From positions 46,249 to 110,248 of the IMG/VR virus record IMGVR_UViG_3300032163_000001: DNA of 64,000 nt. One strand, given 5' to 3'. A program made the translations under genes and the position numbers. The notes beneath the pieces are model-generated. The model did not search any database. It had not been told where the DNA came from and saw nothing but the letters and a program-made list of their open reading frames with translations. Every line of letters begins with the position of its first letter. The first letter of the stretch is position 1. This stretch comes from a virus. Below, in pieces: positions 3,432 through 42,192 of the stretch.

Positions 3432-3716
3432 ATGAGTTATCCAATGTATGAAATCTATAAATTTTTAAAGAAAAAGAAAGGTTATAAAATAGAAGTAGAG
3501 AGAGAAAATGATAAGATAATATCGATTTATTGTAATCCTAAAGGAAAAATTTTACTAGAAAATTTTGGAGATCATATTCCATGTGTTACAATTTCTTTTG
3601 AACTCGAAAAATTTAAAGTTATTTGGGGAGTAGTAACAGTTGAAAGTGATTATTCAGGAGAAGGTGAATTTGAAGATTATACAAAAGTTATTAAAGATTT
3701 GGAGGAAAACTTGTGA
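3432..3716 (+). CDS. hypothetical small protein
   Basis: 94-aa ORF, start overlaps the previous stop. Confidence 0.35.
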   Translation: MSYPMYEIYKFLKKKKGYKIEVERENDKIISIYCNPKGKILLENFGDHIPCVTISFELEKFKVIWGVVTVESDYSGEGEFEDYTKVIKDLEENL

Positions 3717-7091: not shown

Positions 7092-7979
7092 TTGTATTGT
7101 AAAGTAGATGATTTATATTATTATACAGAAGGTAGTCAAATAGATGTAGAAAAAGGATACGTTTCTTTTATATGTAAACGTTGTAATGATCGTTGTAGAA
7201 AAATTGGTTACCTTTTAGAGTTTAAATCTCTCAAACGATCTATGTTATGTTCTTCTTGTAATAATTCCCAAGTCTCAAAATATCGAAAAGAGACTATGAT
7301 AAAGAACGGTATATATGATAAAAGGTGTAAAGATTTTTCAGAAGTAGGAAAGAAAACTCTTACAAAATTTAGAAGTAAATTAAGTAAAGATCAAATTAGT
7401 GAATTATGTAGTAAAGCTGGTAAAAAGAATTATGAAGTAAGCATCAAAAATAATAGTAAGTTTTTTCAGAATATTTATACGAAAGAATTTTGGAATAAAA
7501 TTAGAGAGAATCCAGAAAAATACCAATTTTATATTTTACATCTTACTAATATATCTCGAAATAATTGGAATAATTATACTCCAGAAGAAAAAAACAATCG
7601 CTTAAAAAAATCATTTAAAAATATATCTAGATCTAAAGTATCTGAAGAATTTAAACAATGGTTAAAACAAAATAATTTATATCAAGGATTTAAAAGTGAA
7701 CAGTGGATAAAGGGTTATAAAGTTGATGAATTATCTGAAGAAAAAAAATTAATAATTGAATTCTATGGAGATATTTATCATTGTAATCCTGTATTATTTA
7801 AAGAAGAAAATCAATATTGTTCTTGGCTTGATAGAACTGTTAAAGAACAATGGGATCGAGATCGTAAAAGAATAGAAGATCTATTAAAATATGGTTATAG
7901 TATTATTATTATTTGGGAATCAGATTATTATAATGATAAAGAGAGATTATTAGAAAGGTTAATAAAGGAGATAAGATGA
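7092..7979 (+). CDS. homing endonuclease, Vsr-like/EDxHD-type nuclease domain with N-terminal Zn fingers
   Basis: C-terminal IIEFYGDIYHCNP...DRDRKRIEDLLKYGYSIIIIWESD resembles the Vsr/DUF559 PD-(D/E)xK fold. CxxC pairs at the N-terminus. TTG start. Confidence 0.5.
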   Translation: MYCKVDDLYYYTEGSQIDVEKGYVSFICKRCNDRCRKIGYLLEFKSLKRSMLCSSCNNSQVSKYRKETMIKNGIYDKRCKDFSEVGKKTLTKFRSKLSKDQISELCSKAGKKNYEVSIKNNSKFFQNIYTKEFWNKIRENPEKYQFYILHLTNISRNNWNNYTPEEKNNRLKKSFKNISRSKVSEEFKQWLKQNNLYQGFKSEQWIKGYKVDELSEEKKLIIEFYGDIYHCNPVLFKEENQYCSWLDRTVKEQWDRDRKRIEDLLKYGYSIIIIWESDYYNDKERLLERLIKEIR

Positions 7980-9046
7980 GTAGTTTGGTTGTTGATGTTA
8001 ATATAGTTGAAGAAATTTTACCCCATCCGAATGCAGATAATTTGGAAATAGTTCATGTAAAAGGTTGGCAAGTCTGTATCCAGAAGGGATCATTTAAATC
8101 TGGGGATTTAGGGGTCTATTTTCCTCCAGATTCGTTGTTAACAGAAGAATTATGTAATAGATTAGGTATATGGAAATACACTTCTAAAGGAAAGATTAAA
8201 GGGATCAGATTAAGGGGCGAACCTTCATATGGACTCTTTATCCCACTATCTGAATTTCCAGAACTAAAAGATTCAAAAGTTGGGGATGACGTAACTCAAT
8301 TACTAGGAGTAGAAAAATGGGAACCGCCCCCCGAATTTGCAACTGGTGATATGGAGGTTTCACATCCATTATTTCACAAGTATACTGATATTGAAAACTA
8401 TGGAAATTTTCCAAATGTATTTGATGATGACGAATTTGTAATACTAACAGAGAAGATCCATGGGTGTAATTCGAGAATAGGACTTGTGGAAAATGAATGG
8501 ATGGCAGGAAGTCACAACGTTAGAAAAAAGATGCCAGATATTTGGGCTGAGAATTTATACTGGTATCCTCTAACATATGCAAAAGGTGACTGTGATAAAG
8601 ATGGACATTCAGACGTTCAGCAAATGTTAATAGCGATGACAGGAGAAATGTACAAAGCAAAATCAGTTATCCTATTTGGAGAGGTTTATGGATGGGTTCA
8701 GAAATTAAGATATGGACATAAACCAGGAAAAATTTCTTTTGTTGCGATTGACTTATCTATTGACGAGAAGTATCTTAGTTGGTTTGAATTTTATGGTATT
8801 ATGAAACTTTTTAACATTCCAATTGTTCCTGTTATAGAAATAGCAAAGTTAGAATATATTAAAGATATTGGTTTAGATAAGTTTGCTAGTGGTAAAACTA
8901 AAATACTAGGTCCTGATGGTAACCCCATAGATCAAATAAGAGAAGGTTTTGTTATGAAACCTGTGAAAGAAAGGAGAGCACCTGACATAGGAAGAGTAAT
9001 TTTGAAAGTTAAAAATATTGACTATGTCTCTGGAAATTATGAGTAA
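7976..9046 (+). CDS. ATP-dependent RNA ligase (Rnl2-like nucleotidyltransferase) with N-terminal tRNA-binding-like OB domain
   Basis: Motif I KIHG, motif IV EGFVMK, motif V-like ILKVK. N-terminal HPNADNL...G...GDLGVYF resembles a tRNA-binding OB fold. Confidence 0.6.
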   Translation: MSSLVVDVNIVEEILPHPNADNLEIVHVKGWQVCIQKGSFKSGDLGVYFPPDSLLTEELCNRLGIWKYTSKGKIKGIRLRGEPSYGLFIPLSEFPELKDSKVGDDVTQLLGVEKWEPPPEFATGDMEVSHPLFHKYTDIENYGNFPNVFDDDEFVILTEKIHGCNSRIGLVENEWMAGSHNVRKKMPDIWAENLYWYPLTYAKGDCDKDGHSDVQQMLIAMTGEMYKAKSVILFGEVYGWVQKLRYGHKPGKISFVAIDLSIDEKYLSWFEFYGIMKLFNIPIVPVIEIAKLEYIKDIGLDKFASGKTKILGPDGNPIDQIREGFVMKPVKERRAPDIGRVILKVKNIDYVSGNYE

Positions 9047-9982: not shown

Positions 9983-10387
9983 ATGTGCAACTTAGTACAC
10001 GAAGAATATAAACCGATTGAAAAATCAGGCTATGCATGGAAACTTTTCTCAAAAAATCTCCATGGAAATTTAGTCCAATTGTTTTCTAGAGAACTGTATA
10101 AGAAAGAAGATTCAGGATGGATTTTCTGGAACGATAGATATGGTTCTTATGGATCTACTGGAGATGGATTTTGTGCTTTTGCAAGCAAAGAAGAAGCAGA
10201 ACGAGCACTTCAAGATTTACAAAGAGGCATAACTGTTGGTGAATATTCAGATGCTACACTTCGAGAAATTCAGTATGAAGGAGGTCTTGCTTTACAAAAG
10301 GAACCTAGAATGGTATGTGGAAAAGTTTATGAAACAATAATAATTAGGAGGTTTAAGATCATTGAACAAGGAGAAGAAAATGGATAA
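9983..10387 (+). CDS. hypothetical protein
   Basis: Internal ATG with a strong RBS (AAAGGAGAG) is preferred over the ATG at 9908 given in the ORF track. Confidence 0.4.
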   Translation: MCNLVHEEYKPIEKSGYAWKLFSKNLHGNLVQLFSRELYKKEDSGWIFWNDRYGSYGSTGDGFCAFASKEEAERALQDLQRGITVGEYSDATLREIQYEGGLALQKEPRMVCGKVYETIIIRRFKIIEQGEENG

Positions 10388-11414
10388 GGTCCATATAGTT
10401 AGCTGGTTGCTAACTCGCAGGTGCAATCTTCACTGTTCATATTGTAGGATTTCTAGAAATTACAAGAAGTTTCCCCAAGCATACCCAAATTTAAAACACT
10501 ATGAACAAGATGAGATGAAAACTGAAGATATAATAGAAGCTCTTAAGAAATTGAAACAACACAATTCAAATGCTTTTCATATCTTCTACGGAGGTGAACC
10601 ACTTCTGAGGACTGATTTACCCCAAATAATTAATTTCTGTAACAAAGAAGAAATTAATTATACTATCATCACTAATAATAGTGATGAAGTACAAGGAGCT
10701 ATTGATGACTTATTTTTGAAGACAGATTACGTCACAGGATTAACTTCGTCAGTAGATCCAATTATAGTATCTGGAGAAAATATAACTACAGATCAGTACA
10801 AGAAAAGTGTTAAAGCTTTAGAAAGGTTTACTAAACTTAGAAGTGTAATTAAAGACTTGGTTGCAGAAATTACAGTTGATCGGGATTCAATTAATTGTTT
10901 GTATGACCTTGTAAAGATGTTAACAGATCTTGGAGTGAATAGTGATATAACAGTTATTGATATTGCTAAATCAGATTTCTATGATTTTTCAAATGTTACA
11001 GATAAGAATATTTTAGTTCCAAAGTCTCCACAAGTTTACGAAATCTTTCATAAGATAATCGATGATAAATTAGATGTTCATATGAAAGGTATCCTTTTAG
11101 ATAAAATATATGAAATATTACCGTCAGAACTAGATTGTAAGATTGAGAAAGATGTTCATAACTTAACAGTAGATGCTGATGGAAGTATTAGATTATGTTT
11201 AAGGATCAGGGGTATTTTTACTCCAGCTCATTTTAATATCGAAAACTTTGTGTTAGATTCTGGAGAACTCCACCCTGGTTTAAAACTTAGTTTAGCAAGA
11301 GATAAGAGAATGAGTTGTAGAAATTGTAACTGGTCGTGTATTATTATGAGTCAAATTATTTCTCATACTGAAAGTTATAATGATTTATTACTTCATACTG
11401 AGAAGAGAAATTAA
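10362..11414 (+). CDS. radical SAM enzyme (possible SPASM-like C-terminal Cys cluster)
   Basis: CNLHCSYC (Cx3Cx2C) near the N-terminus, FYGGEPLL glycine-rich SAM motif, C-terminal CRNCNWSC. Confidence 0.65.
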   Translation: MNKEKKMDKVHIVSWLLTRRCNLHCSYCRISRNYKKFPQAYPNLKHYEQDEMKTEDIIEALKKLKQHNSNAFHIFYGGEPLLRTDLPQIINFCNKEEINYTIITNNSDEVQGAIDDLFLKTDYVTGLTSSVDPIIVSGENITTDQYKKSVKALERFTKLRSVIKDLVAEITVDRDSINCLYDLVKMLTDLGVNSDITVIDIAKSDFYDFSNVTDKNILVPKSPQVYEIFHKIIDDKLDVHMKGILLDKIYEILPSELDCKIEKDVHNLTVDADGSIRLCLRIRGIFTPAHFNIENFVLDSGELHPGLKLSLARDKRMSCRNCNWSCIIMSQIISHTESYNDLLLHTEKRN

Positions 11415-14223: not shown

Positions 14224-17001
14224 ATGGATGGTTTGGATCAAGTAATATCTGTAATGCCAGGTCCAGTTAGAGAATATCTAAGAGAGCTTGGAATCTCTGA
14301 AACAGAAGAGGAAGATTTACGTGAGGAAGAAGCACCACGAGCAGTAGATCAAAATGGAGAAGAAATAAAAGAAGTAAAAGAAATAGAAGAAGAACTTTGC
14401 GAGAGGTATTCTCATCAATTAGTTATTGACGAAAGATTTACAAGCTTAGTTCAAGTACACTCACCAACCGGAATAAGATCAGCTTATAAACCAGTTAAGA
14501 AAATCTTCACTGCATTTACAAAAGATATTTCGTCTTATATAGGAGGAAATTTAGAGACTTTTGAGTTGCTACCAAGAAACATAAGATTTTATGTTTCAAG
14601 AAGAGATATTAACTTATTCATAATAGAAGACGAACCATGTATTAGAACAATTAGAACGAATCAAAGATTTGAGAGTACAATAGAAAATTTGAGACTAACA
14701 GGAAAGTCGAAAGAATTTGGATACGAAAATTTCTTACAAGATATGAGTTTTGTAGAAGAGAGAAAAGCAAGTTTACGATCAGATGAAAGTGAAAGAGAAC
14801 GTGATACACTTGTTTCTGGAGAGACTATATATAGATTTAATTTATCTTTTCCTTATATAGTTTATATAGTTTCACAATTTGAAACAACTTATTTTGGCTT
14901 ATCAATCTATTATAGAACAAGTCCACTAACAGATTTAAAAGATTTACTTTTTAAGTGTAATCTTCTTAATATTGATGGTCGTGATGTATGTTGTTTAGGT
15001 ACTTTTAGTGTTCCAGCAAAGTTACCAATTAGTGAGAAAGTATCAATAGTAATTGGTCAGTTTTGGAACAGTATATTTAATACAGAGATTACAGAAAATT
15101 TTAGACTATATAGAGATAATCCACATCTTTGCACATTTTTACATTGGCAACACTATAGTCAAACTGATCCTTCGTTTATTTTAAGTGAGAATTTTATTCC
15201 AGTTTCTGAATCTCATCCGGATTTAAAATCTGTTATAGAATCTAAATTCTCAAGTTCGATGAACGATGAAGAAATAACTCATAATTCTATTGTTAGACTT
15301 TTACATTCTGATTGTTTACCAGCACTAGGAAAAGTTCAACGAAATTTGTTAGTTAGTGCATCACAAATGATAGTAGATGCAGATAATGGAATTACCTTAG
15401 ATTGTGGAGAAGAAATAGTCGTTGACGAAAAGAAATACTATATAGTTAACTTTTTAGCAAGTGGTGTGGGATCAGTAGTACAGCAAATAATAACCGAAGA
15501 TGAAGATCATAATATGAAGAAGTTTAAAGTAACTAGAAAACTAGTAGAAGAATTGATTAAAGGTATTAGAAGTAAAGATCATTTAGAATCTTGTGAAGTT
15601 TCAGGAAAACAAGTAAAGACTGGTGATTTAATTAATTTCCCAGAAGAAAAGCGTTTTAGTACTATTTCTAAACTTCTTAAGGATAGAGATGGAACAGTAC
15701 TTGCTAAATGTGGAAGAGACTTCTATATTCTTGACAACATTAAGTTTAATACAATGACTGAAAATGAAATAACAATTAATGGTGTAAAGCTTCAAAAGAA
15801 AGAAAAATATTTTATTTCTAGAGCGCGGATATATCTGCCAAATCTTCTTGAGGGAGAATTTAATTTAAGAACTTTTGAAGGACTAGGAAATGCTGGAGTT
15901 GATGAAATGGTTTTTAAATTTTCTGGTAACTATAATTTTAGCTTAGATGAAATGTATCGGTACCAATTTTTCAATGAAAGTTCAGTAGAAGAGTTATTAA
16001 TAAGTAGATATGGAATCAAATTATTTGAAAAAGGTTATAGAATTAAAAACAGTTGTTTATATGTTTCTGATCGTGGCGCTACATTAAGACCGGCTACAGT
16101 AAGAGAACAATCTGAAAGGATTGTACAAGAAAAGAGGTTATTCATTCCAAGTTTTGATTTTGATATAGACTTTAAAATTGGAGATAAAGTAATCGTAGCG
16201 AACTGGTCAAAACCTGAATCAATTTGTTGCATCCAAACTATAACAGATTTTGAGAAGTCAGATCAAAATGTAGTTAGTATAGTTACTGTTGATGATTCTG
16301 GAAATGTAACAAAAACAAAGTATATAGATTTTAATCGATCAACTATATTTACTGGGAGTATCAGAAAAATATCATCGGAGTTTGCTGGAATAAAGTCTGG
16401 TTTTAAAATGATTGCGAAAACGAAAGTTAGTAATTTCCTAAAGAAAGATTGTCACCAAGTGATTGGATTTTTAACAGACACTCCAAACGGTATTCCATTA
16501 ATGTTGTGTTCAAACCTATCTACACTTTGGGCTACAGAAGACAATCTTAATAATTTTAACTTTTTAGATCCTTCAAGTAGAACTTTTCTTAAATTTAGAG
16601 TTTCTCCTTTGGACATTAGTAATATCAAAATACAACCGGGTGATTTGGTCTGTTCAATGAAGTCTGCTAATTGTTGCACGACTAATATTTTCTTTGCATT
16701 GAATAGAATTTTCAAGACAGTAGCTGTTTTGAGGTGTCAAGCTAATTATAGTTTCTGTAGGTGTCCAGAAATTGCGAGAGCAAGTCATTCTCTATATGGA
16801 ATACCAAATCCAAGATTTACTATCAAACGTGGATTAGAAGAAGAAGGATTTGAAAGGTTAGATGTAGTTCCAAGTTTTTATAATACATATATAAAGAATA
16901 ATAGTGAACATAGAAATCTAATGCCTATTTGGGTAAGAAAGGAGGAAATATTTAATGTTCCCAATTTACTTAATGGACAAGAAAAAAGTTGTGGTAAATG
17001 A
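14224..17001 (+). CDS. large hypothetical protein (925 aa), immediately upstream of and overlapping the JAB gene
   Basis: RBS AAGGAGGTAAAG. Acidic N-terminus. No motif I can name. Confidence 0.5.
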   Translation: MDGLDQVISVMPGPVREYLRELGISETEEEDLREEEAPRAVDQNGEEIKEVKEIEEELCERYSHQLVIDERFTSLVQVHSPTGIRSAYKPVKKIFTAFTKDISSYIGGNLETFELLPRNIRFYVSRRDINLFIIEDEPCIRTIRTNQRFESTIENLRLTGKSKEFGYENFLQDMSFVEERKASLRSDESERERDTLVSGETIYRFNLSFPYIVYIVSQFETTYFGLSIYYRTSPLTDLKDLLFKCNLLNIDGRDVCCLGTFSVPAKLPISEKVSIVIGQFWNSIFNTEITENFRLYRDNPHLCTFLHWQHYSQTDPSFILSENFIPVSESHPDLKSVIESKFSSSMNDEEITHNSIVRLLHSDCLPALGKVQRNLLVSASQMIVDADNGITLDCGEEIVVDEKKYYIVNFLASGVGSVVQQIITEDEDHNMKKFKVTRKLVEELIKGIRSKDHLESCEVSGKQVKTGDLINFPEEKRFSTISKLLKDRDGTVLAKCGRDFYILDNIKFNTMTENEITINGVKLQKKEKYFISRARIYLPNLLEGEFNLRTFEGLGNAGVDEMVFKFSGNYNFSLDEMYRYQFFNESSVEELLISRYGIKLFEKGYRIKNSCLYVSDRGATLRPATVREQSERIVQEKRLFIPSFDFDIDFKIGDKVIVANWSKPESICCIQTITDFEKSDQNVVSIVTVDDSGNVTKTKYIDFNRSTIFTGSIRKISSEFAGIKSGFKMIAKTKVSNFLKKDCHQVIGFLTDTPNGIPLMLCSNLSTLWATEDNLNNFNFLDPSSRTFLKFRVSPLDISNIKIQPGDLVCSMKSANCCTTNIFFALNRIFKTVAVLRCQANYSFCRCPEIARASHSLYGIPNPRFTIKRGLEEEGFERLDVVPSFYNTYIKNNSEHRNLMPIWVRKEEIFNVPNLLNGQEKSCGK

Positions 17002-17899
17002 TGACATTTACTATTTAGTTGCAAAAAATGGAGTCTTTGTAAAGAAGAAACTAGGTCTTATTGAAAGTTTAACTCCAGTTGATGGAATACCATTTTTAGC
17101 GGGAACTGCTGTTCCTTATGCAAAAATGACAATTCCAAAAATTCCGAAAGAGATATTTTGTAAGATCTTATCTTTCTTTAGAAAAATTTATAGTTTATAT
17201 GAATCAGAATGTGAAGTATTTCTTCTTTATAATAGTTCAAAACAGAAGTTTAAAATAAGAGTTCCATATCAAAAAGTTTCGTATGCTGGTTGTGAAGCTG
17301 TAAGGATGGGGTCTCCAAAAGACTACGCAATAATTTGCTCCATCCATAGTCATTCAAATTTTTCTGCTTTTCATTCTGGGACAGATATTGATGATGAGGA
17401 ACATTTTGAAGGACTACATATTACGATCGGATATGTACCTGATCTAGAATTTAGTGCAGTCGCTTCTATTGTTTCTAACAAAAAAAGATTTAAAGTTAAT
17501 CCATTAGATTATATTGAAGGTTTAGTTCAAACATCTAATCAACGACGAGCTTTATATGCAGTATCTGGTTCGGATCAAATTGAGTTTGATCCAGAATGGC
17601 TGAAATTTGTTGAAAGAAAGTATCCAATGTTTGTACGTAACCAATTAGGATCACCATTTTATAGTTATGGACAATTTACATCAATTATGGATATTAAAGA
17701 TCTAATTAGCGATGTAAAAAATGAAAAAGGTACAAAAGTTAAAACAGCGACTTATAGACAGAATGATCCATGTTTAGTATGTCCATTTAAGAAAGAAACT
17801 CCTGAAGATGAGAAACTACTGAAAGAAAAATTTAGAGTAACTCCGGAAGAAGAACTTACTATAGATGAAGATTTATTTCCGGAGTATTATGGGATGTAA
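16955..17899 (+). CDS. JAB/MPN+ (JAMM) metallopeptidase
   Basis: ECEVFLLY (conserved Glu) followed by HSHSNFSAFHSGTDID, an exact HxHx7Sx2D JAMM motif. RBS AAGGAGGAAATA. Confidence 0.7.
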   Translation: MFPIYLMDKKKVVVNDDIYYLVAKNGVFVKKKLGLIESLTPVDGIPFLAGTAVPYAKMTIPKIPKEIFCKILSFFRKIYSLYESECEVFLLYNSSKQKFKIRVPYQKVSYAGCEAVRMGSPKDYAIICSIHSHSNFSAFHSGTDIDDEEHFEGLHITIGYVPDLEFSAVASIVSNKKRFKVNPLDYIEGLVQTSNQRRALYAVSGSDQIEFDPEWLKFVERKYPMFVRNQLGSPFYSYGQFTSIMDIKDLISDVKNEKGTKVKTATYRQNDPCLVCPFKKETPEDEKLLKEKFRVTPEEELTIDEDLFPEYYGM

Positions 17900-17900
17900 A

Positions 17901-18566
17901 ATGATTATCTATAAGGTCCAAAACAAAGTTAATGGTAAGATTTATATTGGACAAACTAAGTTTACGTTAGAAGAGAGAATTTTATACCATTTAAAAGTCG
18001 GAGATAGTCCAGCTTTTCATAATTCGATTAAAAAATATGGAATAGAAAATTTTGAAATTTCTATTATAGATTCAGCAAAAACTAAAGAAGAACTTAATGA
18101 CAAAGAAAAATACTGGATTAAGTTTTATGATTCTAATAATCGTATAAAAGGTTACAATTTGACAGATGGAGGTGATGGATTTAGCGGTTACGAATTTTCT
18201 GGAGAAAATAATCCAATGTACGGAAAACATCATTCAGAAGAAACTAAAGAAAATATTAGAAAAAGTAGACTTGGAAAACGTTTGCCTGATGAAGTAAAAG
18301 AGAAAATAAGGAGATCTATGACTGGAAAGAAGTTTCCAGAACATTCAAACATGATGAAAGGAGAAAATAACCCAGCGAAAAGATTAGAAGTAAGAGACAA
18401 AATAACTAAAGCTAAAACTGGAAAGTCAAATACGAAGATTGTAGGAGAGAATAATCCAACTAAAAGACCAGAAGTAAGGAAAAAAATTAGTGAATCATTA
18501 AAAGGAAAACCTTCTGGAACTAAAGGGAGACATTGGAAATGGAGACAAAAACTCAAAGGATTGTAA
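17901..18566 (+). CDS. GIY-YIG homing endonuclease with NUMOD3 repeats
   Basis: MIIYKVQNKVNGKIYIGQT. NPMYGKHHSEETKENIRKS plus further basic repeats. Begins 2 nt after the JAB stop and overlaps the E1 start. Confidence 0.75.
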   Translation: MIIYKVQNKVNGKIYIGQTKFTLEERILYHLKVGDSPAFHNSIKKYGIENFEISIIDSAKTKEELNDKEKYWIKFYDSNNRIKGYNLTDGGDGFSGYEFSGENNPMYGKHHSEETKENIRKSRLGKRLPDEVKEKIRRSMTGKKFPEHSNMMKGENNPAKRLEVRDKITKAKTGKSNTKIVGENNPTKRPEVRKKISESLKGKPSGTKGRHWKWRQKLKGL

Positions 18567-19264
18567 TTTGCGGACTGGGAGGAATCGGTTCTATACTTTC
18601 AGAACATGTATCAAGATTTTTAAACTATAATAAATCGTCAATATTTGAGGTATTATTAGTTGATGGGGATAAGTATAAACCAAAAAATCTAGAAAGACAA
18701 GACTTTATTACATTTGGAAATAAAGCAGAAATAAAGAAAAATGAACTGGGTAGTAAGTTCCCAAATATGATATTTGAAAGTTTCCCAAAATTTGTAAATA
18801 AAGAAGTAGTTAAAGATATAATTAAAGAAAAAGATATAGTTCTTCTATGTGTAGATAATCATAAAACAAGAAAAATCGTTTCAGATTATTGTTCTGATAT
18901 AAATGATATAGTTTTAATTTCTGGCGGAAACGATTTATTAAATGGCAATATTCAATTGTTTGTGAAAAAAAATGGAGAGAAACTACTTCCAAATTTGACA
19001 GATTATCATAGAGAAATACAAAATCCAGAAGATAAATCTCCAGAAGAAAAAAGTTGTCAAGAGTTAGCAGAAAGTGAACCACAATTGTATTTTACAAATT
19101 TAATGGTCGCGTCTTTTATGTGTGCATCTCTCTACAACGTTCTAGACGAAAGGTACACTTATTCAGAAGTTTATTTTGATATTACAACTATGAAAGCAGA
19201 CTCTAAAATTAGAAAAGTAAAAGAACAGAAGAAAAACTTTATCGAAGCTAGCGTTAGAATATAG
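18533..19264 (+). CDS. ThiF/MoeB-type E1-like adenylyltransferase
   Basis: RIVICGLGGIGS...LLVDGDKYKPKNLERQ (Rossmann fold plus NLxRQ arginine finger). DIVLLCVDNHKTR matches the E1 D-x-D-N motif. Confidence 0.7.
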   Translation: MEMETKTQRIVICGLGGIGSILSEHVSRFLNYNKSSIFEVLLVDGDKYKPKNLERQDFITFGNKAEIKKNELGSKFPNMIFESFPKFVNKEVVKDIIKEKDIVLLCVDNHKTRKIVSDYCSDINDIVLISGGNDLLNGNIQLFVKKNGEKLLPNLTDYHREIQNPEDKSPEEKSCQELAESEPQLYFTNLMVASFMCASLYNVLDERYTYSEVYFDITTMKADSKIRKVKEQKKNFIEASVRI

Positions 19265-19347: not shown

Positions 19348-19773
19348 ATGGCATCTTATGAAGAAAGAACTGTTGCAGAACTTAGGGGAATTTGTCGTGA
19401 AAAAGGAATTCCTGGAATGTCGAAGGCTAGAAAAGATGATATTATAGAAGCTTTGAGAAGTCGCAAAGGATCATCTACACCTCGAGACAAAAAAGAAAAA
19501 ATTATAACTGAATTACATTCTTCTATCTTTAGATCTGATGGTCGTATTAGTAAGGTTGAAACTACAGTTCATGTGTCTGCTGGTGCAGCAAGTTTTAATC
19601 AACCTTTAGTTGGAAAGAATGTTGGACAGGCTGCAGAAATTTACAAACATATACTTAATGTTGATCCGCTAGAGATTAATGCTCTAGTTAATGGTAGAGC
19701 TGTCGAATCAGATTATGTTTTGAGATCTGGAGATAACCTTGAGTTTCTGAAACCTGCTTCAAGAAAAGGATAG
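19348..19773 (+). CDS. candidate ubiquitin-like modifier: Rho-N/SAP-like N-domain plus ThiS/MoaD-like beta-grasp ending in Gly
   Basis: N-terminal TVAELRGICREKGIPGMSKARKDDIIEAL (Rho_N-like). C-terminal INALVNGRAVESDYVLRSGDNLEFLKPASRKG* follows the ThiS pattern (N..V.R...L.DGD.I), with a terminal Gly. Confidence 0.45.
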   Translation: MASYEERTVAELRGICREKGIPGMSKARKDDIIEALRSRKGSSTPRDKKEKIITELHSSIFRSDGRISKVETTVHVSAGAASFNQPLVGKNVGQAAEIYKHILNVDPLEINALVNGRAVESDYVLRSGDNLEFLKPASRKG

Positions 19774-19786
19774 AAAAATAGTAAAA

Positions 19787-19850
19787 AAGGCTTGGAATTT
19801 TTTAGAAAGTATGTTATAATACTTTTTATAAGTTCCAAGCCTTCTTTTTC
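19787..19850 (+). terminator. 11-bp perfect inverted repeat (AAGGCTTGGAA/TTCCAAGCCTT) with 35-nt loop and T-tract
   Basis: Arms at 19787-19797 and 19833-19843, followed by CTTTTTC. Lies between the Ubl and the second E1-like gene. Confidence 0.4.
19792..19820 (+). promoter_or_regulatory. sigma-A-like promoter: TTGGAA, 17-nt spacer, extended -10 TGTTATAAT
   Basis: -35 element at 19792-19797, TG at 19812-19813, TATAAT at 19815-19820. Sits inside the loop of the inverted repeat above. Confidence 0.35.
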
Positions 19851-19866
19851 TAGAAAGGAGGTAGGA

Positions 19867-20763
19867 GTGAGAAAAGTTTCTTCAGTTGCAGTAGTTGGTC
19901 TAGGTAGTTTAGGTAGTTTTCTTTCTGATAGTTTATCAAAGGTTGAAACAATCGAAAAATTAGTTCTTATAGATTATGATACAGTTCAAGAAAAGAACTT
20001 GATCAACTCTGTTTATAGAAAAATAGACGTTGAAAGATTTAAAGTAAATGCTATGAGAGATATTATATTATCTAACAACCCTTGTCTGAAAGTATTGGTT
20101 GTTCAAGATAAGTATGATAATTTGAGAAGAACTTCTTCAAGGTGGTTACTTGTTCGTCCTGATGTAGATTTAGTAGTAGATTGTAGAGATTTTACATATG
20201 ATAGAACTGATGAAGTAGATGTTAGAATGTATATAACTTCTAGATACTTAGTATTAGATTGTAGAAAAGATGTTAGTTACAATAAACACTATGAAGGAAT
20301 GTACACTTCTCAACTAACTAAGACAGATTTAAGAAATGCAGCGCTTACAACTTGCTTATTAATTCAGAATGGATTGATTTTTGATTTAATTGAAAAGCAG
20401 TTAGTGCACAAAGTTGAACTAGATTATATTTGTAGGAAGACATCAGAAGTAATCCAAAATAAAGGAGATATGATTTTAGATTTAAAAGAAGATACTTCTA
20501 GCTTCTTAAACTTACCAGAATGTTCAGATCGTATTTTGGATGTGAACAAGAAACATAAGTTAACAATGTACTTTGGAGATAAAGAAAATTCTTTAATTTG
20601 GAAAGAAGTTCCACGAAATTCTCTACTAAATATTGAGGATGTTATTTCGTGCTTACGATCTATTATTAAACTTCCTTTTGTCTTTAACTATTATATTATT
20701 CTTCTAAAAAATAATTCCGATGGCTTCTATATTGAACTCATCCCAGAAACTGGAGCTGCCTAA
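19867..20763 (+). CDS. second ThiF/E1-like protein, probably degenerate (arginine finger missing)
   Basis: VAVVGLGSLGS...LIDYDTVQEKNLINSVY has NLINS in place of NLxRQ. DLVVDCRDFTYDRT is retained. GTG start with RBS AAAGGAGGTAGGA. Confidence 0.6.
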   Translation: MRKVSSVAVVGLGSLGSFLSDSLSKVETIEKLVLIDYDTVQEKNLINSVYRKIDVERFKVNAMRDIILSNNPCLKVLVVQDKYDNLRRTSSRWLLVRPDVDLVVDCRDFTYDRTDEVDVRMYITSRYLVLDCRKDVSYNKHYEGMYTSQLTKTDLRNAALTTCLLIQNGLIFDLIEKQLVHKVELDYICRKTSEVIQNKGDMILDLKEDTSSFLNLPECSDRILDVNKKHKLTMYFGDKENSLIWKEVPRNSLLNIEDVISCLRSIIKLPFVFNYYIILLKNNSDGFYIELIPETGAA

Positions 20764-20821: not shown

Positions 20822-21175
20822 ATGATACACATCTTGAGAAAAAACATTGAGAAGTCTCCATTAGTTCCTGATACAATAATTCATAAAGATAAAGTCTTTA
20901 ATATTACATCTGTTGATCCAGAGTTTATAATAAATAAATATGAACTAATTTTTAACGATAATATTTTGAAGGGTGTTAGATTAGTTAATAGTAGACATCC
21001 AAACTGTGACCCAGAGAATGGAATGTTTTGTTTACCAGAAGGAATAAAAGATAGTATTTTTACTAAAGAAATGTATGAAAGATTAAAGTATATTATGAGA
21101 ACTTTTAATCTCGACAACTGTTATTTTATGCCATGGGATCGGTGTACATATACAAGGAGGTTTTTAGATGGATGA
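20822..21175 (+). CDS. UBC-like E2 conjugating enzyme (small)
   Basis: SRHPNCDPENGMFCLPEGI has the HPN-x(8-9)-C-L spacing of E2 active sites (compare HPNINSNGSICL). ATG with RBS AAGGAGGAG, preferred over the 20720 start in the track. Confidence 0.55.
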   Translation: MIHILRKNIEKSPLVPDTIIHKDKVFNITSVDPEFIINKYELIFNDNILKGVRLVNSRHPNCDPENGMFCLPEGIKDSIFTKEMYERLKYIMRTFNLDNCYFMPWDRCTYTRRFLDG

Positions 21176-22003: not shown

Positions 22004-24715
22004 ATGCCAGAACTGTTGGACATAGCAAAATTTTGTGAACACCTTAAAGAAGTATCGTCGATAAAAATAATGGATAGAAATGGAAAGTTCCATTCAGAGG
22101 GCTTATTTTCTGAACAGATTTTTGGCCCAATTAGAAACTATACATGCCAGTGTGGTATTTATTATGGTATATCAAGGTCAGGTGGTACTTGTTCTATATG
22201 CGACGTAGATATAGTTAATAGTTATGAAAGGAGAAGTAGATTTGCTAAAATAGTTTTACCTTTTAAAGTTGTAAACCCTTTGTTCTATGATCTTCTAGTT
22301 TATGCGGGGGGAAGTAACTTAATGGAATCAATTGACTTACTGATGAAAAACGAAAAAAGTGTTATGTATAAAGATGAAGGTGAATATGCAGTAACTACTG
22401 ACCATATAGATACATCAAAATTTGGTAGAGTTTGGGATCGAACAGAAGCCATTTATGAAATTGTTAATAGTTTAGCTGATGATTGTATAAAGTATAATGA
22501 TTCTCCTACTTGGGCTTTTGTAAAAGCTAATATAAGTAACTTACTAATTAGAGATATAATTGTACTTGCTCCAGATTTAAGACCAGTTACAAGGTCGTCT
22601 AATAAAAATAATCAAGTGGTAGACGAAGTTAATAGGTACTACATTCAAATTTTAACTAAAAAGACAATTATAAAAGATTCTATAGTAGAAGTTAATAGTA
22701 ATAAAGAATTGTTCTATCAATATTGGAGACAAGTCCAAAAAGACGTAAACGAATTATATACACATATTCTTAGTAAATTATCTAAGAAAGAGGGATTAAT
22801 TAGAGGTAATATTTTAGGTAAGAGGATTGACTTTTCTGGAAGGGCTGTTATTGTACCAGATCCAACGTTAACATTGAATGAATGTATATTACCATATACT
22901 ATGGCTTTAGAACTATATAAACTACAAATATCAAAGAGATTGATAGATCTTGGTAAATTTAAGTTTTTAAATAAAGCAATTGATTTTGTAGATGAATGTA
23001 TAGAATACAAAGACCCACAACTGTTCGATACAGTGAATGAAATTACTCAAGATGAAATGTGTTTGTTGAACAGACAACCATCTTTACATCGATTAAGTAT
23101 GGTGGGTTTTAAAATTAAATTGACAATGGATGATGTTATTAAAATTCACCCTCTAGTATGTTCTGGTTTTAATGCTGATTTCGATGGGGATCAAATGGCT
23201 GCTTATATTCCTGTTAGTAAAGAAGCTAAAAAAGAAATAATAGATAAGTTTCTAGTTACCAAGAATTTTGTTAATCCAGCTAATGGAAGTTTGACTACTA
23301 TTCCATCACAAGATATAATATTAGGAATTTACCTCCTAACGTCAAATCAATTTCCAGAGCTAACTAAAGAAGTTGAATATAAAGGAAAACTTATTCCGGA
23401 GTCAGTTAAAATATTTAACGAGTGTTTACCATTTGATTATTCGTTAGTTGAGGGAGTAGTTACTAGTAATAAGTTATTAAAAATATTAAACAATATAAAA
23501 GATACATATCCAGAAGGAGTAACAGCAATTGCTTTAGATAGAATTAAAGACTTAGGTTTTAAATATTCTACGTTATATGGTTGTACTATTTCTTTAGATA
23601 GTTGCGAAATTGAAACTTCGGATGAGTTTAAAAAGTTTCTCTATTGTTCAGATGATGTAACAGATCAGTTAACAAAAGTTTCTAGTGAAGAAACAGAACA
23701 GTTTTTAAAAGATAACTTTAAATATGCTTATATGGTTCAGTCTGGGTCAAGAGGGAACTGGGATCAAATTAGACAGTTAATTTTAACTAGAGGGTTTGTT
23801 TCTAATTTTGATGGAGAGATTGTTCCAACTCCAATAAAGAATAGTTTACTAGATGGACTAACAAGAGAGGAGTTTTTCAATTCAACTTATGGTTGTAGGA
23901 AAGGTTTACTTGATGTTGCTTTAAACACTGGAACATCAGGTTATCTTTCAAGAAAACTAGTCTTTGCTTGTGCAAATCTCCAAGTTGATCCAAGTTTAGA
24001 AGATTGTGGAACCACGGATTATTTAAATGTAGATGTTTCTAGTATAAAGAAAGCTAAGATGTTAGTAGATCGTTATTATTTTGATGGTTCCAAATTAGAG
24101 AAAATTACGAAAGAAAATTGTGAAGAACTAGTTGGGAAAAGAATTAAACTAAGAAGTCCAATATATTGTAAGAATTATGATTTATGTCATACATGTTATG
24201 GAGATCTTTTCAAACACACAAGTAGTAGATTCGCCGGAATTTTAGCAGCTCAGTCTTTAGGTGAATGTAATACTCAGCTTATTCTTAGAGTTTTTCATAC
24301 TAGTGGAGTTGCTGCTACTAGAGGTGAGCACGAAGAAATGAGGCAAAAAGATGTTATTGTTGACTTAAGTACTGCATCTAATTTACTACATAAAATTGAT
24401 AAGAATGAGACTCCAGAGAATTTGGTTTCCGAATTATTTGATGTTTACAATATGAGTAGAGATATTTATCATGTGCATTTTGAATGTGTAGTAAGTCAAT
24501 TACTTTGGGATGGTCCGTATAAATGGAGGATGTTAGATAATAGAGATAAAGTCAAACCTATATTTTGCAGTATTCAAAGTATTCCAAGTAAAGAGAGTTG
24601 GTTACTTGGATTAGGGTTTTCCAATCCAAAAACTCATATTATAAAAGGTTTAGTGTACAGAGGTAATTACAAAGGAATTTTCGACCAAATTTTGTTAGGA
24701 GAAAAGTTTTGTTAG
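22004..24715 (+). CDS. rpoC: multisubunit RNA polymerase beta'-like subunit (compact, 903 aa)
   Basis: Catalytic NADFDGDQMA motif. Zn-finger-like CQCG...CSIC near the N-terminus. RBS AAGGAGGTAG. Confidence 0.85.
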   Translation: MPELLDIAKFCEHLKEVSSIKIMDRNGKFHSEGLFSEQIFGPIRNYTCQCGIYYGISRSGGTCSICDVDIVNSYERRSRFAKIVLPFKVVNPLFYDLLVYAGGSNLMESIDLLMKNEKSVMYKDEGEYAVTTDHIDTSKFGRVWDRTEAIYEIVNSLADDCIKYNDSPTWAFVKANISNLLIRDIIVLAPDLRPVTRSSNKNNQVVDEVNRYYIQILTKKTIIKDSIVEVNSNKELFYQYWRQVQKDVNELYTHILSKLSKKEGLIRGNILGKRIDFSGRAVIVPDPTLTLNECILPYTMALELYKLQISKRLIDLGKFKFLNKAIDFVDECIEYKDPQLFDTVNEITQDEMCLLNRQPSLHRLSMVGFKIKLTMDDVIKIHPLVCSGFNADFDGDQMAAYIPVSKEAKKEIIDKFLVTKNFVNPANGSLTTIPSQDIILGIYLLTSNQFPELTKEVEYKGKLIPESVKIFNECLPFDYSLVEGVVTSNKLLKILNNIKDTYPEGVTAIALDRIKDLGFKYSTLYGCTISLDSCEIETSDEFKKFLYCSDDVTDQLTKVSSEETEQFLKDNFKYAYMVQSGSRGNWDQIRQLILTRGFVSNFDGEIVPTPIKNSLLDGLTREEFFNSTYGCRKGLLDVALNTGTSGYLSRKLVFACANLQVDPSLEDCGTTDYLNVDVSSIKKAKMLVDRYYFDGSKLEKITKENCEELVGKRIKLRSPIYCKNYDLCHTCYGDLFKHTSSRFAGILAAQSLGECNTQLILRVFHTSGVAATRGEHEEMRQKDVIVDLSTASNLLHKIDKNETPENLVSELFDVYNMSRDIYHVHFECVVSQLLWDGPYKWRMLDNRDKVKPIFCSIQSIPSKESWLLGLGFSNPKTHIIKGLVYRGNYKGIFDQILLGEKFC

Positions 24716-28519: not shown

Positions 28520-28798
28520 ATGTTTTTCTTAGAAGTTGTTGAACTTGTTCTAGGTATTTTGATCTTAGCATTTTTCGTTACTCAAGTTCTTATTCCTATA
28601 TGGAAAAGGACTCCTTTGTTTCCATTCTTTAGATCTACACGTAAGAAACTTGAAGAAGAACTTGAAAAGGTAAAAGAAGAAACAGATAATGCGCTGATTG
28701 AACGTGAAATTGAGAAAGAAAAAGAAAAGGTTAGTAAAATTAAACCAAAAACTGAAAAAAAGAAGGAGGATAAAGATGATGGGACAAAAACAATTTAA
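28520..28798 (+). CDS. small membrane protein with charged C-terminal tail
   Basis: N-terminal TM helix LVLGILILAFFVTQVLIPIW followed by a KE-rich tail. Confidence 0.4.
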   Translation: MFFLEVVELVLGILILAFFVTQVLIPIWKRTPLFPFFRSTRKKLEEELEKVKEETDNALIEREIEKEKEKVSKIKPKTEKKKEDKDDGTKTI

Positions 28799-30041
28799 TG
28801 GACTTCCAACAGGTATTTCTTTAGGCAGAAAAGGTTTTGTCATAGTTCTAGGGTTCCTTGCATTTTTCATTGTTCTAGTATTATCATTTAGTATTTTCGA
28901 GAACTTAGATGCAGGTAGTATAATGGTGATACAATCACCACTAAAAGGAAACTTAACTTGGTATACAACTCCTGGAGTAAAATGGCAAGGTTTTGGAAAA
29001 GTTAGTAAATATATGAAGAGAGATCAGTTTTGGTTCTCCCTAAGAAAAGATCAAGGAACTAAAGCAGATGAGTCGATTAAAATTCGTTTTAATGATAATA
29101 GTCACGCATCTATATCTGGTTCAATTGCATGGGAGATGCCAGTAGATTCTAAAAATCTTACTAATTTACATGTAAAATATGGAAGTCAACATGCAGTCCA
29201 ACAACAACTAGTTAGAACAGTAATTGAGAAATCTGTTTATATGACAGGTCCAACGATGAGTTCTACTGAATCTGCTTCTGAAAAAAGAAATGAACTTTTA
29301 AATCTTATTGAAGATCAAATTCAGAAAGGAGTGTATAGAACTGAAACAATTGAAGAGAAGAAACCTGACCCAATTACAGGCGTAGTTAAGACTTTTAAAG
29401 TCGCTAAAGTTGTAGTTGATAAAGCAGGACTTCCTCAAAGAGTTGAACAATCACCTTTAAGCGATTTTGGAATCAAAACTTTTAACTTATCAATTAACGA
29501 AGTTAAATACGATGACTTAGTAGAAAAACAAATTCAACAACAACAGGCAGCTTTAATGCAAGTTCAAATAGCTGTTGCTAGAGCTAAAGAAGCTGAACAG
29601 CAAGCTATCACTGTTGCTAAGAAAGGTGAAGCAGAAGCCGCTGAAGCTAAATGGAAACAGGAAGTTATAAAAGCAACAGAAGTGACTGCTGCTGAACAAA
29701 GAAAGAGAGTTGCAGAATTAGATGCTCAAGCTGCTGAACAGACTAAAAGGAAAGAGATTCTTTTAGGTGAAGGAGAAGGAGAAAGAAAAAGATTGGTTAT
29801 GAATGCAGATGGAGCTTTAACTCAGAAACTTGCAGCATATGTAGAAACTCAAAAGTATTGGTCAGATGCAATTTCAAAGTATCAAGGTAATTGGGTTCCT
29901 GTTTATGCATCGGGAGGAACAGGACAAGCTGGATTTGGAGCTCAAGCAATGATGGAATTTTTATCTCTTAAAGCTGCTAAAGATTTAGGTTTAGATATAG
30001 GTATGAAAACTGGGAAACAACTTAAACAAGAACAGAAATAG
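28776..30041 (+). CDS. SPFH/band-7 (prohibitin/HflK-like) membrane protein
   Basis: N-terminal TM helix, SPFH-like core, C-terminal Ala/Glu/Gln-rich coiled coil. ATG with RBS AAGGAGGA preferred over 28698. Confidence 0.6.
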   Translation: MMGQKQFNGLPTGISLGRKGFVIVLGFLAFFIVLVLSFSIFENLDAGSIMVIQSPLKGNLTWYTTPGVKWQGFGKVSKYMKRDQFWFSLRKDQGTKADESIKIRFNDNSHASISGSIAWEMPVDSKNLTNLHVKYGSQHAVQQQLVRTVIEKSVYMTGPTMSSTESASEKRNELLNLIEDQIQKGVYRTETIEEKKPDPITGVVKTFKVAKVVVDKAGLPQRVEQSPLSDFGIKTFNLSINEVKYDDLVEKQIQQQQAALMQVQIAVARAKEAEQQAITVAKKGEAEAAEAKWKQEVIKATEVTAAEQRKRVAELDAQAAEQTKRKEILLGEGEGERKRLVMNADGALTQKLAAYVETQKYWSDAISKYQGNWVPVYASGGTGQAGFGAQAMMEFLSLKAAKDLGLDIGMKTGKQLKQEQK

Positions 30042-41319: not shown

Positions 41320-42192
41320 ATGGTTTGTGAAATTTGTGGGAAAGAAACTAAAGGTTGTAGAGGTTTAGGAACTCACGTTAAACTTACGCATAAAATAGAG
41401 ACTAAAAAATATTACGACACTTTTCTCAAGAAAGATGGAGACGAAACATGTAAAAGGTTTGGTTGCGATAACAGAACTACTTTTACAGATTTAAGTCTTG
41501 GTTATAATAAATACTGTTCTCGAATATGTTCTAACATAGATAATAGAGAAAGAAATAGTAAGTCATTATTAGGTCATAGAGTTACAGAGACAACAAAAGA
41601 GAAGATTAGAGAAAGAAACAAACAGAAGACTCTATCTAAAGAAACTAAGATGAAGATATCTGAAAAACTGAAGAGTGAAGAAGTTAGGAAAAAGATAAAA
41701 GAAACATGTTTAAAGAATTTCGGAGTTGAAAATCCAATGAAACGAGAAGAGATTAAAGAAAAGACAAGAGATACAATGATGAAGAGATATGGAGTTGAAA
41801 ATCCGTCTAAACTACCAGAAGTGAGAAGGAAAATTAGTGAATATATGAAAAATGGAGGAGCTACTCATAGCAATTCATTTGTTAAGAATCCATCTGGTCC
41901 GCAAGTTAAGATATATAATAACGTTAAAGAATTATATTCAGAAGCACTGATAGAATACTGGGTATTAGATAAGTATCGTTTAGATATAGCAATTCTAAGT
42001 TTAAAAATAGATATAGAATATGATGGAAAACACTGGCATCAAGACCAAGAAAAAGATAGAAAAAGAGATGAAGAATTAGAATCTTTAGGCTGGAAAGTTT
42101 TAAGATATAAGGGATTAGAAAATAAAGACATTGTTCCATCTAAAGAACAAGTAAAGAAAGATATAGAGGGACTAAATGGAAGATCAATCTAA
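41320..42192 (+). CDS. homing endonuclease: Zn finger, NUMOD-like repeats, Vsr-like nuclease domain
   Basis: N-terminal CEICG...H...H. Repeated ENPMKREEIKEKTR and ENPSKLPEVRRKISE. C-terminal IDIEYDGKHWHQ...DRKRDEELESLGWKVLRY. Confidence 0.55.
   Translation: MVCEICGKETKGCRGLGTHVKLTHKIETKKYYDTFLKKDGDETCKRFGCDNRTTFTDLSLGYNKYCSRICSNIDNRERNSKSLLGHRVTETTKEKIRERNKQKTLSKETKMKISEKLKSEEVRKKIKETCLKNFGVENPMKREEIKEKTRDTMMKRYGVENPSKLPEVRRKISEYMKNGGATHSNSFVKNPSGPQVKIYNNVKELYSEALIEYWVLDKYRLDIAILSLKIDIEYDGKHWHQDQEKDRKRDEELESLGWKVLRYKGLENKDIVPSKEQVKKDIEGLNGRSI

Follow-up and report, generated by a model that had tools for sequence, protein, structure and literature searches.

An arginine-less E1-like protein coupled to a mini E2-like gene in a ubiquitin-like cassette of huge phages

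Introduction

Conjugation of ubiquitin-like proteins (Ubls) in prokaryotes has so far been characterized as a host anti-phage defense, in the Cap2 branch of CBASS (a signaling system against phages that is based on cyclic oligonucleotides), in Bil and in Bub. The known bacterial activating (E1) enzymes are all homodimers except BilD, in which an inactive and an active adenylation domain are fused (Chambers et al.; PMC10557695), and the operons of E1, E2 (conjugating enzyme), JAB peptidase and Ubl genes described by Iyer et al. (2006), with their Ubl-E1 fusions, include no two-gene E1 pair. Here, we describe a phage locus that has two E1-like genes. It lies in a window of 64,000 nucleotides (positions 46,249 to 110,248 of IMG/VR record IMGVR_UViG_3300032163_000001; the window is the whole stretch analyzed, and all coordinates refer to it), in which a canonical E1-like gene, here called E1-1, is followed by a second, E1-2 (19867-20763). 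E1-2 encodes a diverged E1-fold protein that lacks one arginine of an otherwise conserved ATP site, carries a C-terminal ubiquitin-fold-like domain and evolves together with a small E2-like protein encoded next to it.

The two genes belong to a cassette ordered 925-aa protein, JAB peptidase, E1-1, Ubl with an N-terminal SAP-like and a ThiS-like domain, E1-2 and mini E2-like protein, which sits directly upstream of RNA polymerase (RNAP) genes in every long locus examined. This complete-looking set is a conserved core block in a large, uncultured clade of huge phages; literature searches found no published description of it. Rather than a second activating enzyme, E1-2 is more likely to be a helper or adaptor, and the reading that we tentatively favor makes it the E2-recruiting, non-catalytic partner in a phage Ubl cascade, standing as a second protomer beside E1-1.

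E1-2 is an E1 paralog without the phosphate-binding arginine

19867..20763, + strand: E1-2 gene; E1-fold domain at residues 1 to ~200, beta-grasp-like domain at ~205-298
19996..20010, + strand: NLINS, in the slot of the canonical NLxRQ, with Arg and Gln replaced by Asn and Ser (translation, alignments)
20179..20193, + strand: DCRDF, counterpart of MoeB DCTDN, with the Mg-binding Asp (D108) kept (translation, HMMER)
20479..20760, + strand: beta-grasp-like C-terminal domain of E1-2, with the conserved tail PETGAA at 20743-20760

The E1-2 gene is confirmed as real: its open reading frame (ORF) starts with GTG at 19867, just after AAGGAGGT, and ends with a stop codon at 20761-20763, and public assemblies hold an identical 298-aa protein (P0001). 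What kind of protein is it? Pfam ThiF (PF00899) matches its N-terminal half only (50.4 bits, cut-off 28.1; E 2e-13; residues 30-148 of the long ORF), but a profile search of PDB sequences returns E1-family proteins exclusively, MoeB and ThiF being the closest sequence matches among solved structures for both E1-1 and E1-2. An AlphaFold2 model built from 35 homologs (mean predicted confidence, pLDDT, 83.9) contains a complete E1 adenylation-domain fold, beyond the Rossmann half; a search of viral structures in BFVD returns generic phage ThiF proteins only, with template-modeling (TM) scores of at most 0.47. E1-2 belongs to the E1 (ThiF/MoeB/Uba) superfamily, as a diverged member to which a C-terminal ubiquitin-fold-like domain is fused. 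Its sequence aligns with that of E1-1 over just 47 columns in hhalign and 48 residues in BLASTP, as befits distant paralogs.

The first-pass annotation of this DNA, made from the letters alone, had proposed such a paralogy and had read the key motifs correctly: translation gives NLERQ in the first ThiF gene (18686-18700) and NLINS in the second (19996-20010), and the second retains its GxGxxG P-loop (GLGSLG, 19897-19914) and nucleotide-binding Asp region (IDYD, 19969-19980), which are nearly invariant across the family. In HMMER alignments, the NLINS stretch falls on MoeB NLQRQ and DCRDF on MoeB DCTDN; in hhalign, N47 and S48 of E1-2 face R55 and Q56 of E1-1. The two genes had also been described as adjacent, but the Ubl gene (19348-19773) lies between them.

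Is the missing arginine a peculiarity of this one phage? A word-indexed search found 40 E1-2 homologs, 35-85% identical and all ~290 aa long; 106 cluster representatives came out of an exhaustive profile search at E ≤1e-30; and conservation was counted over 141 full-length representatives of the family. At the position equivalent to MoeB R73, these carry N in 94 cases, K in 15, T in 9, L in 7 and S in 4, and R in only three; loss of the arginine is therefore a stable family trait. The rest of the nucleotide- and Mg-binding site is under strong constraint: G11, G13, G16, D36 and K59 are 100% conserved, and D38, N44, D105, C106 and D108 exceed 96% (D108 in 139 of 141). Because the P-loop, both Asp residues, Lys59 and the Mg-binding Asp are nearly invariant, E1-2 probably still binds nucleotide; in MoeB, the corresponding residues are G41 and G43 of the P-loop, the ribose Asp D62, the phosphate Lys K86 and the Mg Asp D130. 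As for a catalytic Cys in or near the crossover loop, C132 in LDCRK is present in 111 of 141 representatives and begins a loop (132-151) modeled with low confidence.

The identity of the lost residue matters for what the loss implies. The first-pass annotation had called it the arginine finger, but that residue is supplied in trans from an N-terminal helix, as by BilD Arg9 (PMC10557695); what E1-2 lacks is the in-cis phosphate-binding Arg. E1-1 and E1-2 both begin a few residues before the P-loop, with no finger-bearing helix and no conserved N-terminal Arg; in the E1-2 family, 3-10 residues precede the P-loop, with the consensus MYxxIxxIGLG and again no conserved Arg. To our knowledge, the NLxRQ Arg is conserved in adenylating E1-like enzymes (MoeB, ThiF, MccB, UBA5, Atg7 and TcdA). 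The annotation had further likened E1-2 to the inactive adenylation domains of eukaryotic heterodimers. That parallel stands in part: the Arg is lost family-wide and a canonical E1 is nearly always encoded alongside, but the inactive subunits SAE1 and NAE1 have lost ATP binding, whereas the other ATP-site residues of E1-2 are nearly invariant.

Two residues were considered as relocated replacements. R107, within DCRDF, is present in 127 of 141 representatives but was ruled out, since a distant relative (P0183) has both DCRD, with R107, and the canonical Arg, in NLNR. Position 46, just before the lost Arg, is K or R in 71 of 141, only about half of the family, and is Ile in the window. Another distant relative (P0164; locus L148, 1155-2438) is a one-chain tandem of two E1-like domains, both Arg-less (HHLASH and HNLPNQ); on the same contig, which is just 2.8 kb long, a small ORF (2464-2721, 85 aa) ends in KLEAGQ and could be a Ubl.

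The C-terminal domain, its tail and the E2-like neighbor

The C-terminal domain of E1-2 has a beta-grasp-like topology and is likened here to the ubiquitin-fold domain (UFD) of E1s, which recruits E2s in eukaryotes (PMC12355090); a PDB sequence search with this domain found nothing usable. It ends in a tail conserved as PETG[A/G/S]A (G296 in 120 and the terminal Ala in 135 of 141 representatives): these last six residues, predicted to be flexible, are the most conserved stretch of E1-2 outside the ATP site. Neither the domain nor the tail had been reported before, and the first-pass annotation mentions neither of them, nor the E2-like gene that follows. As a side observation, [LI]PETG[AGS]A contains the sortase-type motif LPXTG, and many homologs have LPETG; this is probably a coincidence, and E1-2 is unlikely to be a sortase substrate, having just two residues after the motif, no hydrophobic segment and no sortase among the cassette hits.

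20822..21175, + strand: mini E2-like protein, 117 aa, with HPNCDPENGMFC at 20996-21031; ATG at 20822, after AAGGAGGAG

The protein encoded at 20822-21175 belongs to a family of ~110-aa proteins in which H59, N61 and C70 are invariant and NLD..CYF.PW is also conserved. HPN is separated from the Cys by eight residues in 38 of 47 loci; the canonical ubiquitin-conjugating (UBC) domain has a seven-residue spacer. The top match of a 25-sequence profile in the whole PDB is a UBC protein (1yrv), aligned at exactly the HPN...C motif (E 0.26), and an hhalign comparison with three UBC sequences yields E 8.7e-4 and a probability of 23%; Pfam and PADLOC contain nothing that matches. The protein thus resembles the UBC active site, and the name E2-like applies at the motif level only.

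The upstream cassette: peptidase, canonical E1 and Ubl

14224..17001, + strand: 925-aa protein, first gene of the cassette (by synteny), its 3' end overlapping the JAB start
16955..17899, + strand: JAB/JAMM metallopeptidase, with a perfect HxHx7SxxD motif, HSHSNFSAFHSGTD, at 17345-17386
17865..18566, + strand: GIY-YIG/NUMOD3 homing endonuclease (Pfam GIY-YIG 3e-10, NUMOD3 1e-13)
18533..19264, + strand: E1-1, canonical minimal E1, 243 aa (Pfam ThiF 5.7e-22, full length)
19348..19773, + strand: Ubl, with an N-terminal Rho_N/SAP/HeH-like domain and a ThiS/MoaD-like beta-grasp domain, ending in SRKG
19774..19866, + strand: Ubl-E1-2 spacer, with a 24-bp hairpin followed by a U-run, a promoter-like site and the E1-2 Shine-Dalgarno sequence

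The motifs of E1-1 include GLGGIG (18572-18589), DGD, NLERQ, VDNHKTRK (18851-18874), GNKA and Cys175 (19055-19057); NxxRQ is present in 42 of 42 loci and the Cys lies in SCxEL in 41 of 42, the remaining one having the variant GCEAL. With every catalytic residue and a conserved Cys in place, E1-1 should be able to adenylate a Ubl and to hold it. Its best solved relative is MoeB, and its NCBIfam hints include PRTRC_ThiF (TIGR03736; full-length, 1e-10, 41.5 bits against a cut-off of 144.75).

The Ubl matches Pfam Rho_N (3.6e-7) and, under the cut-off, ThiS (6.5e-4). Its C terminus is KG in 33 loci and KGC in nine; the lone Cys past the Gly would have to be removed before activation, and this hints at the JAB peptidase acting in maturation. 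The latter matches Pfam Prok-JAB under the cut-off (E 3e-4) and NCBIfam PRTRC_A (TIGR03735; 7e-8, 32.2 bits against a cut-off of 101.8); a PDB sequence search with it found nothing usable. A syntenic ORF of 829-925 aa precedes the JAB gene in the called-gene loci that reach that far upstream; the 925-aa protein of the window has no match in Pfam, PHROG, NCBIfam, PADLOC or PDB sequences and is a candidate target, E3-like factor or scaffold. The homing endonuclease is an intruder that stands outside the system: it sits exactly between the JAB and E1-1 genes and overlaps both, whereas in relatives these two genes abut or overlap each other. Comparable endonucleases occur elsewhere in other loci, such as a NUMOD3 ORF between the RNAP β' and β genes of L004.

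Between the Ubl and E1-2 genes, the 93-nt spacer forms a hairpin with a predicted RNA folding energy of -31.7 kcal/mol (z -5.9; none of 200 shuffles equally stable), and a promoter scan finds TTGGAA-17-TG-TATAAT at 19792-19820; as predicted from the sequence, these elements are compatible with separate expression of two modules. The two genes share a reading frame, with one stop codon and the 93 nt between them; read-through is unlikely because other loci have one or two genes in this gap. These extra genes, found in many related phages and absent from the window (L001 7108-7942; L004 7413-7874; L006 6165-6963; L007 6432-6854; L008 163-1021), are of two types: one encodes 140-195 aa with conserved GNIFTVC...RGVSICS...GRA, and the other 70-84 aa with FSIFSYN...KKDGT.GY. 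They were considered as a hidden second Ubl, but neither has a C-terminal Gly or resembles a beta-grasp protein.

The cassette behaves as two modules

The E1-2 family is found in 56 IMG/VR viral contigs. In a pattern-based scan of 185,579 bacterial and archaeal species genomes, which very divergent copies could escape, no member turned up, and no cultured phage in a 50,697-record collection has one; a DNA search of cultured phages gave matches to the homing endonuclease only. One homolog of E1-1 lies with a full cassette and RNAP genes on a 255-kb contig (L065; NCBI GCA_048882605.1) labeled as a Candidatus Thorarchaeota metagenome-assembled genome (MAG); a contig of a phage was probably binned here with an archaeal MAG, though the host may be archaeal.

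Does E1-2 always travel with E1-1? Seen from E1-2, nearly always: among the 43 non-redundant loci whose upstream sequence spans 2.6 kb or more, 42 have E1-1 and the Ubl gene there, the exception being L059, which has E1-2 and the E2-like gene but no E1-1 nearby. Seen from E1-1 (80 further IMG/VR loci and three look-ups, of which 82 loci with at least 3.5 kb of downstream sequence were counted), E1-2 lies downstream in 75 of 82, including all three look-ups; three of these 75 copies are divergent, still Arg-less and each followed by an E2-like ORF. The remaining seven loci, from four lineages (L105, the L114 group, L138 and L139), have the JAB, E1-1 and Ubl genes, but in the 5 kb downstream both E1-2 and the E2-like gene are missing; in L139, RNAP β' follows the Ubl gene almost directly. 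E1-1 may therefore not need E1-2. The E1-2 and E2-like genes adjoin, overlapping by 1-4 nt in L001 and L006. On this pattern of presence and absence, the cassette behaves as two modules, JAB/E1-1/Ubl and E1-2/E2-like.

Co-variation agrees with this pattern. Pairwise protein distances were compared over 39 loci with the RNAP β' distance as a proxy for phylogeny, a crude method in that distances saturate and lineage-specific rates vary. The strongest partial correlation is that between E1-2 and the E2-like protein (0.63, p 0.002), followed by E1-1 and Ubl (0.42, p 0.01); E1-1 and E1-2 are weakly correlated (0.19, p 0.03), and the other three pairs (-0.06 to 0.08) are not significant. Mean distances rise from RNAP β' (0.56) through E1-1 (0.68) and E1-2 (1.11) to the E2-like protein, the fastest (1.68), E1-1 thus changing nearly as slowly as the polymerase. 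The evolutionary partner of E1-2 is the E2-like protein.

How might an arginine-less E1-like protein act?

In the reading that we favor, E1-1 would adenylate the C-terminal Gly of the Ubl and hold the Ubl as a thioester on its crossover-loop Cys175. E1-2 would perform no canonical adenylation, because its α-phosphate Arg is lost, while retaining a nucleotide-binding pocket, which selection clearly maintains along with the extra domain and the exact C-terminal tail; it would bind the E2-like protein, probably through the beta-grasp-like domain and/or the tail, and present it to Ubl-charged E1-1. E1-2 would thereby fill the second protomer position of an obligate E1 dimer, giving a eukaryote-like asymmetric E1 spread over two genes; this geometry is the simplest because E1-fold proteins dimerize and the eukaryotic E1 UFD docks the E2. 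The JAB peptidase would trim the KG-C type of Ubl end and/or reverse conjugates. This is essentially the heterodimer of the first-pass annotation with a different division of labor. Plausible though a heterodimeric E1 may be, it is safer to read E1-2 as an E2-coupled, non-canonical E1-like adaptor.

What speaks for this scheme is observed: the E1 homology and fold of E1-2, with an Arg lost family-wide beside a conserved ATP site; an E1-1 that is canonical and more conserved than E1-2; an extra C-terminal domain, UFD-like in its beta-grasp-like topology, and tail; a conserved cassette in which E1-1 and E1-2 co-occur; and the adjacency, joint absence and strongest co-variation of E1-2 and the E2-like protein. 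BilD, moreover, offers a precedent for a prokaryotic inactive/active E1 pair. Several points weigh on the other side. E1-1 and the Ubl apparently can do without E1-2, which L105, the L114 group, L138 and L139 lack in the 5 kb downstream, E1-2 and the E2-like gene are found in L059 without E1-1 nearby, the co-variation of the two E1-like proteins is weak, and a terminator-like hairpin and a promoter-like site part the Ubl and E1-2 genes in the window. The ATP site of E1-2 looks intact, contrary to that of known inactive adenylation domains; neither E1-like protein could donate an arginine finger, none being conserved at their N termini; and UFDs do not have a tail so extremely conserved. Finally, every biochemical step of the scheme and the contact between E1-1 and E1-2 are what we infer, and for the contact this counts against the reading.

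Could E1-2 act without E1-1? E1-2 and the E2-like protein could form an autonomous, split Cap2-like E1-E2 module in which E1-2 homodimerizes, makes no contact with E1-1 and either adenylates a C terminus through a non-canonical site or serves as an ATP-dependent scaffold for the E2-like protein. This is unlikely, yet it would account for the nearly invariant ATP-site residues, for the joint presence, joint absence and co-variation of the two genes and for the hairpin and promoter-like element between the modules, and the tandem of two Arg-less domains in P0164 shows that such domains persist elsewhere. Adenylation without the Arg is harder to reconcile with its conservation in the characterized E1-like enzymes known to us: no conserved basic residue substitutes for it, position 46 being K or R in only half of the family and Ile in the window, and R107 does not compensate, as P0183 has it next to the canonical Arg. 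The window, moreover, holds no separate substrate gene for E1-2.

The tail invites another, quite unlikely idea, namely that E1-2 is itself a modifier or substrate, its C-terminal domain and tail serving as a Ubl-like handle: the JAB peptidase would cut ...PETG|AA after Gly296, E1-1 or the partner protomer would activate the new end, and the protein would be passed to the Cys of the E2-like protein or to a target; in an alternative form, the tail would be a tethered pseudo-substrate that plugs the adenylation site. A tail that is better conserved than anything else outside the ATP site, is flexible by prediction like Ubl tails and follows a domain of beta-grasp-like topology would suit such a role; the Bil and Bub JAB peptidases cleave just past a conserved Gly, and Ubl-E2 and Ubl-E1 fusions are known. 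But PETGAA is unlike the GxKG tail of the cassette Ubl, so that one E1 pocket would have to take both, and two conserved residues past the Gly are odd for a discarded propeptide. Were it true, the phage would couple covalently, or self-tether, an E1-like module that binds ATP; this would make a viral conjugation system with two modifiers, of which no counterpart has been described and which, beside RNAP genes, may act on transcription or on host defense proteins.

Improbable, next, is a sulfur-carrier pathway of the ThiS/MoaD/TtuB type that would make a thio-modified nucleic acid or cofactor, with E1-2 as an accessory. E1-1 is indeed nearest to ThiF/MoeB, the Ubl is ThiS/MoaD-like, E1-1 and the Ubl can stand alone, and a radical-SAM gene is conserved a few genes upstream. 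However, no rhodanese or cysteine desulfurase is seen in the cassette, a JAB peptidase and an HPN...Cys E2-like protein suggest conjugation and deconjugation, and the nucleic-acid-binding-type N-terminal domain of the Ubl is atypical of sulfur carriers. As for the upstream radical-SAM gene, it is followed by a WYL_2-domain gene in L004 (995-2311), L006 (1-568) and L007 (1-1297), and the radical-SAM gene of the window lies at 10362-11414.

That E1-2 is another Rossmann-fold enzyme, for example a dehydrogenase, the outcome by which the first-pass annotation proposed to be judged, has a negligible chance: a Pfam match confined to the N-terminal Rossmann half and a BLASTP alignment with E1-1 over just 48 residues would allow it, but the PDB profile search, with its exclusively E1-family matches, refutes it, and the E1-specific DCxDx and Lys motifs are conserved.

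Phage context

42176-43804: large terminase subunit
50624-53122: baseplate wedge protein
22004-24715: RNAP β', unsplit multisubunit type, 903 aa
25061-28150: RNAP β, unsplit multisubunit type, 1029 aa

The window (G+C ~30%) is part of a large tailed phage, as its terminase, baseplate, structural and RNAP genes indicate; it also encodes a virion structural protein and SbcC-like, RNA ligase and radical-SAM proteins. RNAP β' and β share only ~27% identity with the phage and bacterial RNAPs of the cultured-phage collection. Proteins identical to those of the window occur on public contigs of 80 and 186 kb, and the contigs of relatives reach 312 kb. Other genes include those for an SbcC-like ATPase (3713-5920), an RNA ligase with a PHA02142 OB domain (7976-9046), an SPFH/Band-7 protein (28698-30041) and a 1151-aa protein with a VanY/endolysin-like domain (44720-48175); gene orientation switches at ~49.4 kb.

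Comparison with known systems

If the reading of E1-2 as an E2-recruiting partner is right, phages operate a protein-tagging system of their own and have an E1 that is split by nature into a catalytic and an E2-docking half, each with a gene of its own; the step from homodimeric ThiF/MoeB to the asymmetric, eukaryote-type E1s could then become testable with small, simple proteins. An otherwise intact ATP site without its Arg and an invariant C-terminal tail would be the test cases for a pseudo-E1 role.

How does the locus compare with described systems? Homodimers of a single gene product, MoeB and ThiF have R14, R73 and Zn-binding CxxC pairs and serve a sulfur-carrier function; unlike MoeB, E1-2 lacks R73, and E1-2 and E1-1 both lack the R14-bearing N-terminal helix. 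In NAE1-UBA3 and SAE1-SAE2, the inactive subunits have lost ATP binding and supply the arginine finger, whereas E1-2 probably still binds nucleotide and has no finger to supply; in eukaryotic E1s the UFD is on the active subunit, whereas in the phage the beta-grasp-like domain is on the Arg-less E1-2. Cap2, the E2-E1 fusion of type II CBASS, is one chain that homodimerizes and has a CD-NTase substrate, and it is assumed to keep the canonical Arg; in the phage, E1-2 and the E2-like protein are encoded by separate genes, and no CD-NTase or effector domain is found among the cassette genes by Pfam or PADLOC. The best named NCBIfam hints for the JAB protein and E1-1 point to PRTRC but lie far under the curated cut-offs, which leaves the cassette outside PRTRC, and neither ParB nor any other PRTRC protein was detected with it.

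In BubCD, or "6E," operons, a JAB-E1 fusion forms a homodimer (PMC11601596), and the phage JAB gene abuts E1-1, so that JAB/E1 coupling is alike in both. The Bub systems, with non-canonical E1 and E2 proteins and a peptidase that cuts after a conserved Gly (PMC11601596), resemble the phage set; yet the Bub E1 and E2 lack a catalytic Cys and a single E1 type is present, whereas the phage E1-1 and E2-like protein keep the Cys and a second, Arg-less E1-like protein is present. The "Nidhogg" viruses of Asgard archaea have three ThiF genes in one virus, read as related to a ubiquitin system (bioRxiv 10.1101/2021.07.29.454249); they are a different virus group, likened here by gene content alone, and the cassette, the Arg loss and the coupling to an E2 are not described there.

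The first-pass annotation had held an asymmetric E1 to be unusual for prokaryotes, which is right in that the other known bacterial E1s are homodimers, and too strong if taken to mean unprecedented, since BilD fuses an inactive to an active unit. In the anti-phage BilABCD system, however, BilD is a single chain whose inactive unit donates Arg9 and into which a helical CYS domain is inserted (PMC10557695). In the phage, E1-1 and E1-2 are separate, distant genes with neither the arginine finger nor the CYS insertion, which sets the locus apart from BilABCD; the unit without the Arg retains its ATP-site residues and has a beta-grasp-like domain; and the whole is encoded by a phage instead of a host defense island. 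What is new, therefore, is that a phage carries a Ubl system whose E1-fold proteins come as a split, asymmetric pair; its Arg-less member combines a beta-grasp-like domain with coupling to a mini E2-like protein.

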